Positions 26,781 to 31,027 of a stretch of DNA of 59,918 nucleotides are shown here, in pieces. The DNA comes from Syntrophaceae bacterium UBA1062 (GTDB taxonomy: Bacteria; Desulfobacterota; Desulfomonilia; UBA1062). The stretch lies in assembly GCA_002316295.1 (NCBI GenBank), contig DCDF01000173.1, forward strand, positions 1 to 59,918, in the 5' to 3' direction. The notes beneath the pieces are model-generated. The model was not told the origin of the DNA. It did not search any database and saw only the letters and a list, made by a program, of their open reading frames with translations. The stretch's first letter is position 1; every line of letters starts with the position of its first letter. A program made the position numbers and the translations under genes.

Positions 26781-28676
26781 CTAAAACTTCATCTGCAGCG
26801 AAACACGATAGGTCCTGCCTGGCACAGGGTACCAGAAGCTGCCCCAGTCAGACTTGTCTTCGAATTCCACCGAGTCGTCGTCCAGAATATTGCTGATCTT
26901 GAAGGCTGCGGTTGCAAACCTGCTGATCTCGCAAGCGACGCCTGCATCGAGGATGTGGCGGTTGCCTGTTTTCTCGGTGTTGGCGTCGTCAGTGTACACC
27001 CCTTCCCTGAACTGGTAGGAGGCGAATATGTCGACCTGCCTCCCGAAAATCACGGGCAGATAGTCCGCTTGAAAAGTGAAGATGTCCTGGGGCTTGAGCC
27101 TGATCCTCTTGCTCTCGAAGGGGCCGCTGCCATATCTGAACTGGTTGAATGCATAGCCGAGCGAGAGCTTCAGCGGATCGAATGGCTTTACCCATGCATT
27201 GGCCTCCATTCCCGATGCATGGGCCCTGTCTATGTTCACATAGGTGAATGTCATCTCGGCGGGATAATCCATCTTGATCAGGTCGCTGTAGCGCGTCACG
27301 AAATAGCTCGCGCTCAGGCCGAACCGTTCGAATTCGATAACGGGCCCGACGTCCCAGCCGACGGACTTCTCGGGCTTCAAACCCGGATTGGAAAGAAAGG
27401 TATACCAGCTCGACGGAGTATAGAGATGGCCCATGGTCGGCTCGCGGTAGCCGGTGCCGGTGTTTGCCTTGAGACTAACATGCGGCGCGACGTTCCAGAG
27501 CACGCCGCCGTGGAAGGTCCACCGGCCTTCGAATGCCGTGCTGTAGTCGTGCCGTACGGCCAACGAAAAGAGAACCGGATCGAGGCTCAGATCCGATGTG
27601 ATGAGCCCCGATGTCACGGTTCGCGAATGGATCCCGTAGTCGTCGCTGCCGAGCCGCTCCCTGCGCACGGTGATTTCGGGGGCGAGGCGCAAGGGGCCTG
27701 CGCTTCGGGAATAGATGAGATCCAGATAGTCTGAGGTGAGCTTCGTGAAGACGTCGCCTGCATAAAAGGTGAGCGAGTGGTTGCGGTTATAGATCCTGGA
27801 AGCCTTGATCGCGAACGATGAATCACGATCGAGCTCGCGGCTGATGTCGAGCATGAGCGAGTACTGCCTGACGTTGACTTCGTCGTCCGGGGTCAGAACG
27901 CCCGCATCGCCCTCGCTGCCGGGAGAGCCCAGCTGCTGCTCGGCCGCAGAGCCCGAGAGGAGCGTATCCCATCCGTCGATGTCCATCCAGAGCTTGGAGA
28001 GGATAAAGGTGTTTTCCGTCTCGTTGTTTTCTCTGCGCGCCGTGGTGCCGTCCGGCCTCTCATAGAGAAAGTCGTTATCCGCCCAGCTCCGGGTCGCGTC
28101 CAGCAGAAAACCTGACCCACCTCTGGCGGTGTTCAGGAACAGATTATACAGGTTGTGTCCGTAGGTGCCGAGCGATGAGGTGAGCTCAAGGGCGTCGCCC
28201 GGCCTGGGGTTTCTGGTGACGATATTGACCGCTCCTCCCATGGCCGATCCGCCGAATGCGGCCGAATTGCTGCCTTTCACGATCTCGATCCGGTCGATCT
28301 CGGGAATCGCGTAGAGAGACAGGTCGACCAGATCACCGCTCGCAGAGGTGAGGGGAACACCGTCGAACATGACGAGCGTCTGCTGAAAATTCGACCCCCG
28401 CAGGCTGACCGGGACAGGGACCGCTCCCCCGTAGCTGGGCAGGTCGACGCTGACGGCCTTTCTGATCGCATCACGGGTATCGATGAGCCCGGATGCCAGG
28501 GGCCTGACCCGGACGACCTCGGTAAACGATGTGGGAGACTTGTCCGCAACGGAGCCGGAAGACGCATCATCGAGGGCAGTAGCCGTGACAATGATCTCCT
28601 CGGCTGGACAGGGGGAAAAAAGGAAACACGAAACAGTGAACGATACGATGCACAGTGCGGTGAAGCGGTGAAACAT
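26781..28676 (-). CDS. btuB: TonB-dependent outer-membrane receptor, probably a cobalamin/corrinoid transporter
   Basis: Has a signal peptide, the TonB box EEIIVTATA, plug and beta-barrel regions, and a C-terminal aromatic residue (…SLQMKF). It is preceded by a cobalamin riboswitch. Confidence 0.88.
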   Translation of the reverse strand: MFHRFTALCIVSFTVSCFLFSPCPAEEIIVTATALDDASSGSVADKSPTSFTEVVRVRPLASGLIDTRDAIRKAVSVDLPSYGGAVPVPVSLRGSNFQQTLVMFDGVPLTSASGDLVDLSLYAIPEIDRIEIVKGSNSAAFGGSAMGGAVNIVTRNPRPGDALELTSSLGTYGHNLYNLFLNTARGGSGFLLDATRSWADNDFLYERPDGTTARRENNETENTFILSKLWMDIDGWDTLLSGSAAEQQLGSPGSEGDAGVLTPDDEVNVRQYSLMLDISRELDRDSSFAIKASRIYNRNHSLTFYAGDVFTKLTSDYLDLIYSRSAGPLRLAPEITVRRERLGSDDYGIHSRTVTSGLITSDLSLDPVLFSLAVRHDYSTAFEGRWTFHGGVLWNVAPHVSLKANTGTGYREPTMGHLYTPSSWYTFLSNPGLKPEKSVGWDVGPVIEFERFGLSASYFVTRYSDLIKMDYPAEMTFTYVNIDRAHASGMEANAWVKPFDPLKLSLGYAFNQFRYGSGPFESKRIRLKPQDIFTFQADYLPVIFGRQVDIFASYQFREGVYTDDANTEKTGNRHILDAGVACEISRFATAAFKISNILDDDSVEFEDKSDWGSFWYPVPGRTYRVSLQMKF

Positions 28677-28689
28677 GGGACACCTCCTC

Positions 28690-28890
28690 AGGCGAATTCC
28701 CTCGGAGTCTCCATCTGGGTACGCAGATGCAGTCCTGTAACCGCGGATAGGTCTTCTGACTCACGGATCTCCCAGACGGCCTCACCTTCCCGCGTCTAAC
28801 AGCAGTGGTGGTCGGCGACCGCCTGTCCCCGTTCACAGCGGCGTCCCCGTCCCGGAATCGCACCGGGTTCCCTTGAATCCGCAGCAGGGT
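28690..28890 (-). promoter_or_regulatory. Cobalamin (B12) riboswitch in the 5' leader of the TonB-dependent receptor
   Basis: The minus strand reads ...CTGCGGATTCAAGGGAACCCGGTGCGATTCCGGGACGGGGACGCCGCTGTGAACGGGGAC...GAGTCAGAAGACCTATCCGCGG. This includes the conserved AAGGGAA/GGTG..ATTCC/GCCGCTG core and the B12 box AGTCAGAAGACCT (within 28745-28762). The P1 helix pairs CTGCGGAT (28884-28877) with ATCCGCGG (28748-28741). The SD GAGGAGG follows at 28689-28683. Confidence 0.85.
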
Positions 28891-28896
28891 GTTACA

Positions 28897-28925
28897 TAGC
28901 TAGCAGAGCGGTGATGGGATGTCAA
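28897..28925 (-). promoter_or_regulatory. Candidate promoter for the riboswitch-btuB transcript
   Basis: The minus strand reads TTGACA (28925-28920), a 17-nt spacer, then TAGCTA (28902-28897). The -10 is weak, but the predicted start falls just upstream of riboswitch P1. Confidence 0.3.
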
Positions 28926-29255
28926 CACGAAAGCCTTTGAAAATATTGATATTGTGAGGATAGAGACTCGTTTCATTGGTGTTTGGAGAGGAGCCGTCCG
29001 CGCATCTCTGCACTGCCGGCCCTCTCTTCAGACATGTCATCCGGTGCTGAGATGAATCGGATACAGGCGGGATGAGAATGTGTCCTTCGCTCATGGCATA
29101 AACCGGAGAAGCTCTGTCCCTGATGAGGGCTCCCTCTCCCTGATAAGGTGCGTAAGCCCCGGATACATCGGCTGTTTCTATCAAAAGAATCAAAATGCAT
29201 ATACACCCTGTTTTTGCCCTTGCGGCGCGGGGTGATTTCTGGCATATGCACAATC

Positions 29256-29330
29256 ATGACAACGACATCAGCTACCAGGTATTATGGGTTTTATTTCTGG
29301 TTTTTCGGGGGTGAACCGCCTGTGGGCTGA
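29256..29330 (+). CDS. Candidate aromatic-amino-acid leader peptide (24 aa, [24 protein letters not shown])
   Basis: Runs from ATG 29256 to TGA 29328-29330. Codons 29280-29306 read TAT TAT GGG TTT TAT TTC TGG TTT TTC. It is followed by antiterminator and terminator elements and then aroF. No good SD precedes it. Confidence 0.5.
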
Positions 29331-29375
29331 TCTGTTCGCACGATGAACAAAAAGGCCGTGGGTGGTTCAACCCCC
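29307..29375 (+). promoter_or_regulatory. Candidate antiterminator helix of the aroF leader
   Basis: GGGGGTGAACCGCC (29307-29320) is complementary to GGTGGTTCAACCCCC (29361-29375): 14 bp with one bulge and one G-U pair. It overlaps both arms and the loop of the terminator, so the two structures are mutually exclusive. Confidence 0.5.
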
Positions 29376-29387
29376 ACGGCCTTTTTT
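29354..29387 (+). terminator. Intrinsic terminator (attenuator) upstream of aroF
   Basis: GGCCGTGGG (29354-29362) pairs with CCCACGGCC (29373-29381) and is followed by TTTTTT (29382-29387). An A-run on the 5' side could extend the stem. Confidence 0.7.
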
Positions 29388-29434
29388 ATTGCCGTGGGTC
29401 CGCCTCATGGTCGTTCTCACATAAGGAGGCATGT

Positions 29435-30454
29435 ATGATCATATCGATGAAAAAGGGCGCGACACCGCAAGAGATCAGCCACGTCAGGAAGCTGATCGAA
29501 GAGCTCGGATACAAGGTGCACGAGAGCCAGGGCTCGGAACGGATGGTGTTCGGTGCGATAGGAGACGAGCGGAGCAAGCACCGGCTCACCTCCCTCGAGG
29601 CTCAGCCCGGGGTGGAGAAGGTGATTCCCATCCTCGCCCCGTACAAGCTGGCCTCGAGAGAGACGAAGCAGGAGTCCACCGTGATCGACCTGGGGCACGG
29701 GGTAAAGGTCGGGAACCGCAAGCTGCTCGTCATCGCCGGTCCCTGCGCGGTGGAGTCCCAGGATCAGATCATGGAGGTCGCCGCCGCGATGAAGGAGTGC
29801 GGCGCTCACATGCTCAGGGGCGGAGCGTTCAAACCCAGGACCTCGCCATATGCATTCCAGGGCCTCATGAACGACGGTCTGTACCTTCTTGCAAAGGCCA
29901 GAGAAGCCTACAGTCTGCCCGTGATCACCGAGGTCATGGACACGGCCAGCCTCGAGATCATTTCCGAGCATGCGGACTGCCTGCAGGTGGGCGCGCGCAA
30001 TATCCAGAATTTCCAGCTGCTCAAGGAGGTGGGCAAGACCCGGAAACCCGTCCTCCTCAAGCGGGGCATGTCCACGACCATCGAGGAGTTTCTCATGTCG
30101 GCCGAGTATGTTCTTTCGAACGGAAACCACCAGGTGATCCTCTGCGAGCGCGGTATCCGGACCTTCGAGACCGCCACCCGCAACACCCTGGATCTCTCCG
30201 CCGTGCCGGTGCTCAAGGAGAAGACCCATCTGCCCGTGATCGTGGACCCATCCCACGGCACCGGACACGCGCGCTATGTCATGCCCATGGCGTATGCAGC
30301 GGTTGCGGCCGGCGCCGACGGTCTCATGATCGAGGTGCATCCCAGGCCCGAGGAGGCGTTGAGCGACGGTCCGCAGTCTCTCAGACCGAATGAATTCAAG
30401 CACTTGATGGAAGGGTTGCGGCGCATCGCAAGTGCGGTGGACAGGGATATCTGA
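29435..30454 (+). CDS. aroF: 3-deoxy-7-phosphoheptulonate (DAHP) synthase, type I-beta with an N-terminal ferredoxin-like regulatory domain
   Basis: 339 aa, with the SD AAGGAGG 5 nt upstream. The catalytic motifs [12 protein letters not shown] and GARNIQNF are present. The ~65-aa N-terminal extension ([33 protein letters not shown]...) resembles that of the Thermotoga-type enzyme. Confidence 0.92.
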
Positions 30455-30493: not shown

Positions 30494-31027
30494 ATGGCAT
30501 ATTTCCAGCCTGAACACAGGAGCATGCTCATACAGGGCTCTCTGCTGGCGGAGCGTATTGTATCCAAAGAGACCCAATGGTGTGGAGACGGGCGCTATGA
30601 CGTTACAACCCTGGCTGAATCAGGAGAGGACGAACGCAAGGAGGGAGTGTTCGCCCATCTCCTCCTGCTCAGGCCTGAAGAGGAGAAAAAGCCCCCCCTG
30701 TTCAGGATCAGCCTGCAGGACATCGAGATATTCGATTTCGTCCGGAAGCACCGCGAAATCGACCTCGTATCGTTCTTCACCTTCATCATGACCCACGAGC
30801 TGCTCCACATCCACCGCTTTTCCACCGGCATGGCGGACTTCTACGAGACCCAAAAAGTCGAGGAGGAGGAGGCGTTCGTCGATTCCCTCACGCGTCTCCT
30901 TCTTGCCAAGAACCCGGTGACCGGGTTCAAGAATATTCTCACACTGCTTGACAAGGTAGAGGCGGCGCCTCTATACAGCCCCACAAAAATAGTAGATCGA
31001 GGGAGGTATTTTCATGCCTATCTATGA
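30494..31027 (+). CDS. Hypothetical protein with an HExxH motif
   Basis: 177 aa. The only recognisable feature is [13 protein letters not shown] (HELLH). It overlaps the next gene by 14 nt. The start is unsupported by an SD. Confidence 0.5.

Follow-up and report, generated by a model that had tools for sequence, protein, structure and literature searches.

The 59,918 nucleotides of contig DCDF01000173.1 from Syntrophaceae bacterium UBA1062 (assembly GCA_002316295.1), referred to here as the window, carry a leader element directly ahead of aroF, the gene for a type I-beta 3-deoxy-D-arabino-heptulosonate 7-phosphate (DAHP) synthase, and this element is very probably a ribosome-mediated leader-peptide transcription attenuator of aroF. 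The features of that regulatory class are found together in it: a conserved open reading frame (ORF) rich in codons for the end products of the pathway, an intrinsic terminator, an antiterminator that excludes the terminator, and an earlier helix (1:2) that contains the regulatory codons. These sequence elements are conserved among related leaders, the terminator and antiterminator cannot coexist, and their helices covary; the leader element is real, and chance is ruled out. A first-pass annotation, made from the DNA letters alone, had proposed a trpL/pheL-type logic for this region, and the preservation of the ORF in its orthologues, its linkage to DAHP synthase and the compensatory changes in both helices bear that proposal out.

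The leader ORF, its promoter and the terminator

The leader ORF lies on the forward strand from the ATG at 29256 to the TGA at 29328-29330 (29256-29330), has 24 codons, lacks a Shine-Dalgarno sequence and is probably leaderless. Its regulatory codon run, Y Y G F Y F W F F at 29280-29306 (forward strand), reads TAT TAT GGG TTT TAT TTC TGG TTT TTC, with three Tyr, four Phe and one Trp, so that eight of nine codons are aromatic. The ORF, the run and the aromatic count had all been given in the first-pass annotation, and every one of these sequence facts was reproduced. Across the six reading frames of the window, this run is the sole place with at least seven aromatic codons in nine, and none of 200 local shuffles reached eight in nine; the run is therefore not explained by base composition.

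To place the element among its relatives, we combined two sources. A protein-guided scan with one genome per species returned 80 of 519 flagged DAHP synthase loci, and the 29 closest of these with complete upstream sequence (70-90% protein identity) come from Desulfomonilia, “Deltaproteobacteria” and Thermodesulfobacteriota metagenome-assembled genomes (MAGs), including Phox-21. Each of these 29 loci has a short ORF that contains an aromatic run and stops about 97-122 nt ahead of the DAHP synthase start. Metagenomes were scanned with a DNA pattern, which gave 64 hits; 29 of these were true leaders, and 35 chance matches in unrelated sequence were dropped. For 28 of the metagenome leaders enough downstream sequence was available, and all 28 are followed after 105-123 nt by a DAHP synthase orthologue. 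The combined set of 30 genome loci and 29 metagenome loci reduces to 40 distinct nucleotide versions that encode 37 distinct peptides. A first cmsearch alignment (A3) with 13 weak matches, at E values of 0.088-0.94, was replaced by another (A4).

The short ORF and its aromatic run are kept in 40 of 40 distinct leaders, in each case as an intact ATG-to-stop ORF of 22-26 codons, and the differences in ORF length between orthologues are whole codons only. The presence of all three aromatic amino acids, which the first-pass annotation had pointed out in the window, is shared by 38 of the 40, with means of 3.3 Tyr, 3.2 Phe and 1.45 Trp. The eight N-terminal residues of the peptide vary freely, and the run, with a family motif of approximately (Y/F)(F/Y)G(Y/F)YFW(F/Y), is conserved together with the PPVG-TGA end. 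At the nucleotide level, even synonymous sites within the run and PPVG hardly vary. The family covariance model finds a single copy in the window, and in the sequences collected the element is linked exclusively to DAHP synthase.

A probable sigma-70-type promoter lies at 29220-29248 on the forward strand, with the -35 hexamer TTGCGG (29220-29225), a 17-nt spacer and TGG followed by the -10 hexamer CATATG (29240-29248), so that the ATG at 29256 begins 7 nt past the -10 box. Among 43 distinct upstream sequences, the arrangement TTG(C/A)NN-N17-(C/T)ATAnn has the 17-nt spacer in 40, the -10 box is mostly preceded by TGn, and the gap between the -10 box and the ATG is 6 nt in 20 and 7 nt in 18. 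The usual transcription start of sigma-70 promoters lies 6-7 nt past the -10 box. Because no Shine-Dalgarno sequence is present and the conserved promoter places the ATG at the expected transcription start, the leader mRNA is probably leaderless, beginning at or next to the AUG. The first-pass annotation had already remarked on the lack of a convincing Shine-Dalgarno sequence, correctly, and had described a weak promoter and an ORF that might be weakly translated or leaderless; with a conserved promoter and the ATG at the expected start, a leaderless mRNA is more probable than weak translation.

Other signals in this region were considered and set aside. A second short ORF, proposed to start at ATG 29246, is rejected because this ATG belongs to the -10 hexamer CATATG (29243-29248) and is not kept in relatives that have CATATA or CATAAG instead. 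The promoter-like ATGACA-N18-TATTAT (10/12) at 29256-29285 on the forward strand, inside the ORF, is probably a chance match; relatives have their TATTAT at another codon, without a -35 element. A sigma-54 reading of TGGCAT was also dropped, as no conserved TTGC comes after it at the -12 position.

The intrinsic terminator, formed by regions 3 and 4, occupies 29349-29387 on the forward strand. In its core stem, GGCCGTGGG (29354-29362) pairs with CCCACGGCC (29373-29381); the stem is extended by A:U pairs and followed by the U-tract TTTTTT (29382-29387). The hairpin itself, at 29349-29386, has a folding energy of -27.7 kcal/mol and is part of the minimum free energy (MFE) fold, and its end is 47 nt from the DAHP synthase gene; the pairing of the canonical terminator that the first-pass annotation had placed about 50 nt before the aroF ATG is thus confirmed. 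The 201-nt leader folds better than all of 200 dinucleotide shuffles (z = -3.6). The GC pairs of the terminator core are nearly invariant among the orthologues, U29359:A29376 is replaced by C:G in four sequences, and two further positions toggle between G-C and G-U. When RNAalifold was applied to the whole 269-column alignment, the terminator was the sole helix recovered. There is no forward-strand gene upstream that this terminator could serve, the neighbour being a divergently transcribed gene for a TonB-dependent receptor.

Just past the U-tract, at 29391-29398 (forward strand), there is a repeat of GCCGTGGG, the core of the terminator 5' arm, which could pair with the terminator 3' arm in read-through transcripts. 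Motifs of the form (G)CC(N)UGGG, like this repeat, are also found in relatives, and the repeat may be the remnant of a second hairpin that is seen in another leader family, described below. A structured or anti-Shine-Dalgarno role for the 47-nt spacer between the terminator and the Shine-Dalgarno sequence of aroF was rejected, since this spacer has no consistent fold (mean z = -0.16).

The alternative helices and their conservation

The antiterminator is formed by region 2 (GGGGGTGAACCGCCTGTGGGCT, 29307-29328, forward strand), which comprises codons 18-24 and the first base of the stop codon, and region 3 (29353-29375, forward strand), which comprises the terminator 5' arm, its loop and the first three nucleotides of its 3' arm. 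In constrained folding, these strands form a helix of about 21 bp, interrupted by one bulge and one mismatch (-41.1 kcal/mol), whose proximal part, CCGCCUGUGGGCU with AGGCCGUGGGUGG, sequesters the terminator 5' arm. The first-pass annotation had described a 14-bp antiterminator between 29307-29320 and 29361-29375; this pairing exists, but it is only the distal part of the longer helix. Likewise, its claim that the antiterminator and terminator exclude each other holds, but the target is not restricted to the loop and the ends of the stem, because the whole 5' arm is taken up. A small conserved hairpin at 29333-29349 (forward strand; 29333-29338 with 29344-29349) lies inside the antiterminator and is present in both conformations. 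It is 89% paired among the orthologues, its innermost pair being GC in 14, AU in 12 and UA in 6 sequences, with variants such as GTTCTC...GAGAAC.

To model the effect of a ribosome, we folded transcripts of stepwise increasing length under constraint, with a 28-nt footprint moved codon by codon. The antiterminator is the MFE structure for an A site on any of codons 9-14 once region 3 has been transcribed; with a stall at codons 9-13 it remains so after the entire 3' arm has been made (to 29381), and with a stall at codons 9-10 it is so even when the U-tract is included (-43.2 vs -42.9 kcal/mol). Stalls on W15, F16 and F17 leave only the antiterminator core free. When the ribosome is on the stop codon, the antiterminator is lost and the terminator forms, and the terminator also forms in the absence of a ribosome. 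These folds give the outcome that the first-pass annotation had predicted, a terminator for a ribosome at the stop codon and an antiterminator for an early stall.

The comparative evidence for the antiterminator comes from alignments of different kinds; the structure tested on them was that of a single member sequence. If the 3' arm is left out of the fold, region 2 takes up 10-12 of the first 12 terminator nucleotides in each of the 30 orthologues. In a MAFFT alignment, fitted to no structure, 87% of the cells pair as against 39-50% for slid partners, and 29 cells are changed on both sides, a count (not a probability) that none of 500 shuffles reached. In the alignment R1, in which 41 sequences were realigned to the covariance model and which consequently leans towards the structure, 88% of the cells pair (40-51% for slid partners), the double-change cells number 59, compared with 17.6 on average in the shuffles, and eight pairs show compensatory change. 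RNAalifold, given transcripts truncated before the 3' arm and no input from the window fold, recovers the same antiterminator core of 15 pairs, with compensatory pairs of the types UA/GC (12 and 9 sequences), GC/AU and CG/UA. Compensatory changes, which the first-pass annotation had named as a check, are thus present in the terminator (UA to CG) and in the antiterminator.

Two further observations concern the coding side of this helix. In one orthologue (L027), CCGCC in region 2 has become CUACC, which changes the first Pro codon to Leu, and this is matched by a change of the partner strand from GGUGG to GGUAG; the compensation points to the RNA rather than the peptide as the selected object. 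The loop of a terminator is normally unconstrained. Here it covaries with the codons that follow the aromatic run, in the combinations GGGGGUGAA/UUCAACCCCC, GGAAGUGG/UCACAUUCC and GGGGAGGA/UUCUUCCU, and cognate duplexes of loop and codons are more stable than non-cognate ones (-8.5 vs -7.4 kcal/mol, permutation p = 0.0002).

The first-pass annotation missed region 1, which supplies the 5' strand of an anti-antiterminator; the 1:2 helix formed by this region completes the four-region design of the trpL type. Region 1 extends over 29267-29300 (forward strand), with an outer part (29267-29280 with 29318-29331) and an inner part (29287-29300 with 29305-29317), and the helix has an energy of -24.8 kcal/mol; the inner strand 29287-29300 consists of the aromatic codons. 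Among the orthologues, 70% of the cells are paired, compared with 34-51% for slid partners, and in 12 pairs both partners are changed. In 27 of 30 folds of the ORF alone, 70-96% of region 2 is paired with upstream sequence; the value in L024 is 0.62. On these alignments the case for the 1:2 helix is weaker than that for the 2:3 and 3:4 helices.

A second family of aromatic leaders, unrelated in sequence, was found upstream of more distant DAHP synthase loci (L032, L033, L039, L041, L052, and L074) in MAGs of Thermodesulfobacteriota, Syntrophaceae and Dissulfurispiraceae. These leaders lie about 115-225 nt upstream of the DAHP synthase start, with an example peptide of ...FWYGFYFYYYFLPVCPKLRRTS and tails such as ...VCPSLRRT. 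The codons after the run, GGUCUGCCCAUCG, are again complementary to the terminator 5' arm of the same leader, GCCAUGGGUAGAC; past this terminator, most of the loci (clearly L032, L033, L041 and L074) have another hairpin, which ends in a U-tract of its own. Because this family follows the same logic with a different sequence, it strongly supports the mechanism, and it shows that the conserved tails PPVG and VCPS are by-products of RNA pairing.

Proposed mechanism and alternative explanations

We propose that the attenuator would work as follows. Transcription would start on the leader ATG or no more than a few bases from it, as the conserved promoter geometry suggests. When aromatic aminoacyl-tRNAs are plentiful, the ribosome would reach PPVG-UGA and cover region 2 (29307-29328), the terminator would form, and transcription would stop before aroF; if the ORF were not translated at all, region 1, including the aromatic codons, would pair with region 2 and the terminator would form as well. 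When charged Tyr-, Phe- or Trp-tRNA is scarce, the ribosome would stall within 29280-29306, melt or occlude region 1 and free region 2, which could then pair with 29353-29375 before the 3' arm is made, allowing RNA polymerase to enter aroF. A stall at the early codons Y9 to Y13 would leave the entire region 2 free, and a stall at the later codons W15 to F17 would free the invariant core CCGCCUGUGGGCU alone.

Several points weigh against this reading. We infer from the sequence the transcription start, the translation of the ORF, the stalling and the response to each amino acid, and with no Shine-Dalgarno sequence ahead of ATG 29256, translation hangs on the presumed leaderless start. Codons for an amino acid are no proof that it is sensed, since the mixed aromatic leader aroR of Corynebacterium glutamicum (discussed below) responded to Phe limitation and not to Tyr limitation. 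With the ribosome on codons 14-17, the full-length RNA at equilibrium favours the terminator; in the folding model, a stall on a late codon, the single Trp codon included, therefore needs kinetic trapping to give read-through, and W15 to F17 would act kinetically only. On the comparative side, most stem positions are invariant, so that many pairs are uninformative for or against the structure, and the shuffle controls overstate significance because the sequences are related.

The same facts may be asked to support other readings. The strong constraint at the RNA level, seen in the near-invariant synonymous sites of the run and of PPVG, would also be expected if the switch were controlled by a ligand or a protein (as a riboswitch, a T-box or a TRAP-like system), with the short ORF incidental and untranslated; the ATG without a Shine-Dalgarno sequence fits this as well, and the same gene is elsewhere under RNA control that does not depend on translation, as in the T-box of L065 and the (G/U)AG arrays of Bacillota loci described below. 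However, an incidental ORF should not stay intact in every distinct leader with length differences of whole codons, keep its start codon fixed 6-7 nt from the -10 box, or conserve exactly the three end products of the pathway, and the second family, an unrelated RNA, again encodes an aromatic run. Nor does the leader match any Rfam family at its gathering score or contain an aptamer-like domain beyond the alternative helices, and we regard control of this kind as very unlikely. One could also suppose that the ORF is an independent micro-gene for a functional small hydrophobic protein, without a regulatory role on aroF. It does have its own promoter and strong terminator, and the C-terminal two thirds of the peptide are conserved; yet the N-terminal third varies, the conservation reaches synonymous sites, the partner strand of the RNA compensates for the Pro to Leu change in L027, the terminator loop covaries with the codons behind the run, and the element occurs only ahead of DAHP synthase at a fixed distance, all of which leaves this idea barely credible.

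A subtler alternative keeps the translation but changes the signal: the peptide might be a TnaC-like arrest peptide that senses a free amino acid, with W...PPVG-UGA stalling the ribosome near the stop, where it would hold region 2 and enforce termination at high levels of aromatic amino acids. The length of 24 codons, the conserved Trp and Pro-Pro and the UGA stop in nearly all leaders are in keeping with this, and a ribosome at the stop does mask region 2, after which the terminator forms. But the PPVG codons are the antiterminator core, whose conservation is explained at the RNA level, and the orthologues L027 (LPVG), L028 (LSVG) and L015 (PPVD) alter the peptide while keeping the pairing; the long aromatic run would be unnecessary, and in the second family, complementarity to the family's own terminator arm is found with another tail (VCPSLRRT). 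We give such an arrest peptide hardly any weight. A combination with ribosome-mediated attenuation can also be imagined, in which PPVG-UGA of a leaderless leader also slows elongation or release and so parks the first ribosome on region 2; the leader would then join a hunger sensor for three tRNAs to a peptide-level arrest and, in its two families, be the main transcriptional control of entry into the shikimate pathway across the Thermodesulfobacteriota. This extended version of leader-peptide attenuation we consider unlikely.

Known systems and genomic surroundings

The first-pass annotation had regarded an attenuator of this kind as undescribed, and this claim does not hold, because there are precedents in C. 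glutamicum (aroR; PMC11802643, PMC4046766) and in Acholeplasma (uORFC-13-1; PMC8632094). In C. glutamicum, a leader with a Phe-Tyr-Phe motif, aroR, lies upstream of the aroF (cg1129) operon (Neshat 2014, J Biotechnol 190:55, as reported in PMC11802643, PMC4046766 and PMC7356990), and transcription of aroR-aroF rises on Phe limitation, with no effect of Tyr, according to the account of that work in PMC11802643. The leader of the ilvB attenuator in the same species is described as translatable without a ribosome-binding site (Morbach 2000, as cited in PMC4046766). The element in the window resembles aroR in having a short mixed-aromatic leader ORF directly before a DAHP synthase gene, with stalling proposed to raise transcription, a likeness that is a functional analogy taken from the papers. 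It differs in having eight aromatic codons, including Trp, instead of a three-codon motif, and in belonging to the Thermodesulfobacteriota (Desulfomonilia) and not to the Actinomycetota. The DAHP synthase controlled here is of type I-beta and carries a ferredoxin-like domain. AroF of C. glutamicum probably belongs to a different subclass of DAHP synthase.

The upstream ORF uORFC-13-1, a motif which was defined bioinformatically, codes for Phe, precedes an intrinsic terminator and is found exclusively upstream of aroF in Acholeplasma (Brewer 2021, PMC8632094), shares with our element the Phe codons just before a terminator and the exclusive position upstream of a DAHP synthase gene. However, it has a ribosome-binding site, a U-run that codes for at least one Phe and a distribution restricted to Acholeplasma, whereas the element described here has no ribosome-binding site, has a Tyr/Phe/Trp run, and belongs to another lineage with another sequence. 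The likeness to trpL, pheL and hisL of Escherichia coli lies in the regulatory codons in region 1, the alternative 1:2, 2:3 and 3:4 helices, the masking of region 2 by a ribosome at the stop and a terminator about 50 nt before the structural gene. The E. coli leaders, in contrast, sense one amino acid each, have ORFs led by a Shine-Dalgarno sequence and control operons of terminal branches, not the entry enzyme of the common pathway. The T-box leaders found before DAHP synthase genes in Bacillota have the same target gene, a terminator/antiterminator output and the same class of signal, tRNA charging, but in these the RNA binds uncharged tRNA directly, without translation.

In Rfam, the leader matches no family at the gathering score. 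The best sub-threshold matches are the trpB motif (21.9 bits vs 59) and Thr_leader (16.1 vs 55), and at E <= 10 only chance-level matches (trpB motif, Thr_leader, and ar35) are obtained; all of the amino-acid leader families (Trp_leader, Phe_leader, His_leader, Leu_leader, Thr_leader, and trpB motif) miss their gathering scores. No amino-acid leader family was matched by the orthologous loci or by the second leader family either. The T-box model RF00230 has no match in the window even at E <= 10, and the same model does detect the T-box of L065. In the literature, we found no description of such an attenuator for the Desulfomonilia or the Thermodesulfobacteriota. Given the published precedents, the lack of an Rfam match at the gathering score and the lack of a description found for this lineage, the element is a new family within a well-known mechanistic class. 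Its special features are modest: one run covers all three aromatic amino acids, the start is probably leaderless, and the terminator loop takes part in the antiterminator. Our understanding of attenuation itself is unchanged by the element.

The element does provide a regulatory annotation for the entry step of aromatic synthesis in uncultured and poorly studied Desulfomonilia and other Thermodesulfobacteriota, a lineage that includes relatives of the phosphite oxidiser Phox-21. Since the leader family is absent from Rfam, its alignment and covariance model could seed a new entry. As a natural leader with codons for three aromatic amino acids on a single transcript, it would lend itself to studies of how codon position affects sensitivity, and it may possibly serve as a compact biosensor part.

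Other RNA elements were seen upstream of DAHP synthase genes among the loci returned. A bona fide T-box (RF00230, 130 bits) lies at 3639-3881 of L065, and the Bacillota-type loci L046, L059, L065 and L068 have arrays of (G/U)AG triplets with a spacing of 2-3 nt, which are reminiscent of TRAP sites. Taken together, these sequences suggest that RNA-based control of the DAHP synthase gene takes at least three different forms among the phyla. In L006, L010, L012, L014 and similar loci, in which aroF starts with GTG, a conserved ACACACACGGC is located in the last approximately 35 nt before aroF; it is complementary to the GCYRGUGUG that surrounds the start codon, forms this pairing in MFE folds, and is absent from the window. 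Judging from these folds, the pairing may be an extra translational control in the relatives with a GTG start.

In the window, aroF itself (29435-30454, forward strand) is preceded by the Shine-Dalgarno sequence AAGGAGG at 29423-29429 (forward strand), of which GGAG is invariant in 30 sequences. Its product of 339 aa, with an N-terminal ferredoxin-like regulatory domain, matches Pfam PF00793 (1.3e-87) and PF18152 (3.7e-21) and NCBIfam NF006421 (510 bits vs a cut-off of 335), so that both databases confirm the DAHP synthase with an N-terminal allosteric domain that the first-pass annotation had recognized. Downstream, 39 nt past aroF and ahead of moaC, there is a conserved ORF of 177 aa (30494-31027, forward strand), which contains HELLH, an HExxH-like motif, and has no match in Pfam or NCBIfam. 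It is found directly downstream of aroF in 27 of 29 full orthologous loci and also in the truncated L008. From this arrangement, the ORF is probably co-transcribed with aroF and would thus be under the same attenuator and aromatic control.

On the other side, the TonB-dependent receptor gene (Plug and beta-barrel domains; 26781-28676, reverse strand) is transcribed divergently from the aroF leader and has a cobalamin riboswitch upstream (RF00174, 76 bits, 28729-28897, reverse strand). Relatives of this receptor lie upstream in 22 orthologous loci, and the cobalamin riboswitch was confirmed in both of the loci scanned for it (L006 and L016). It should also be mentioned that the window contains a tRNA gene at 1627-1698 on the reverse strand (RF00005, 67.5 bits).

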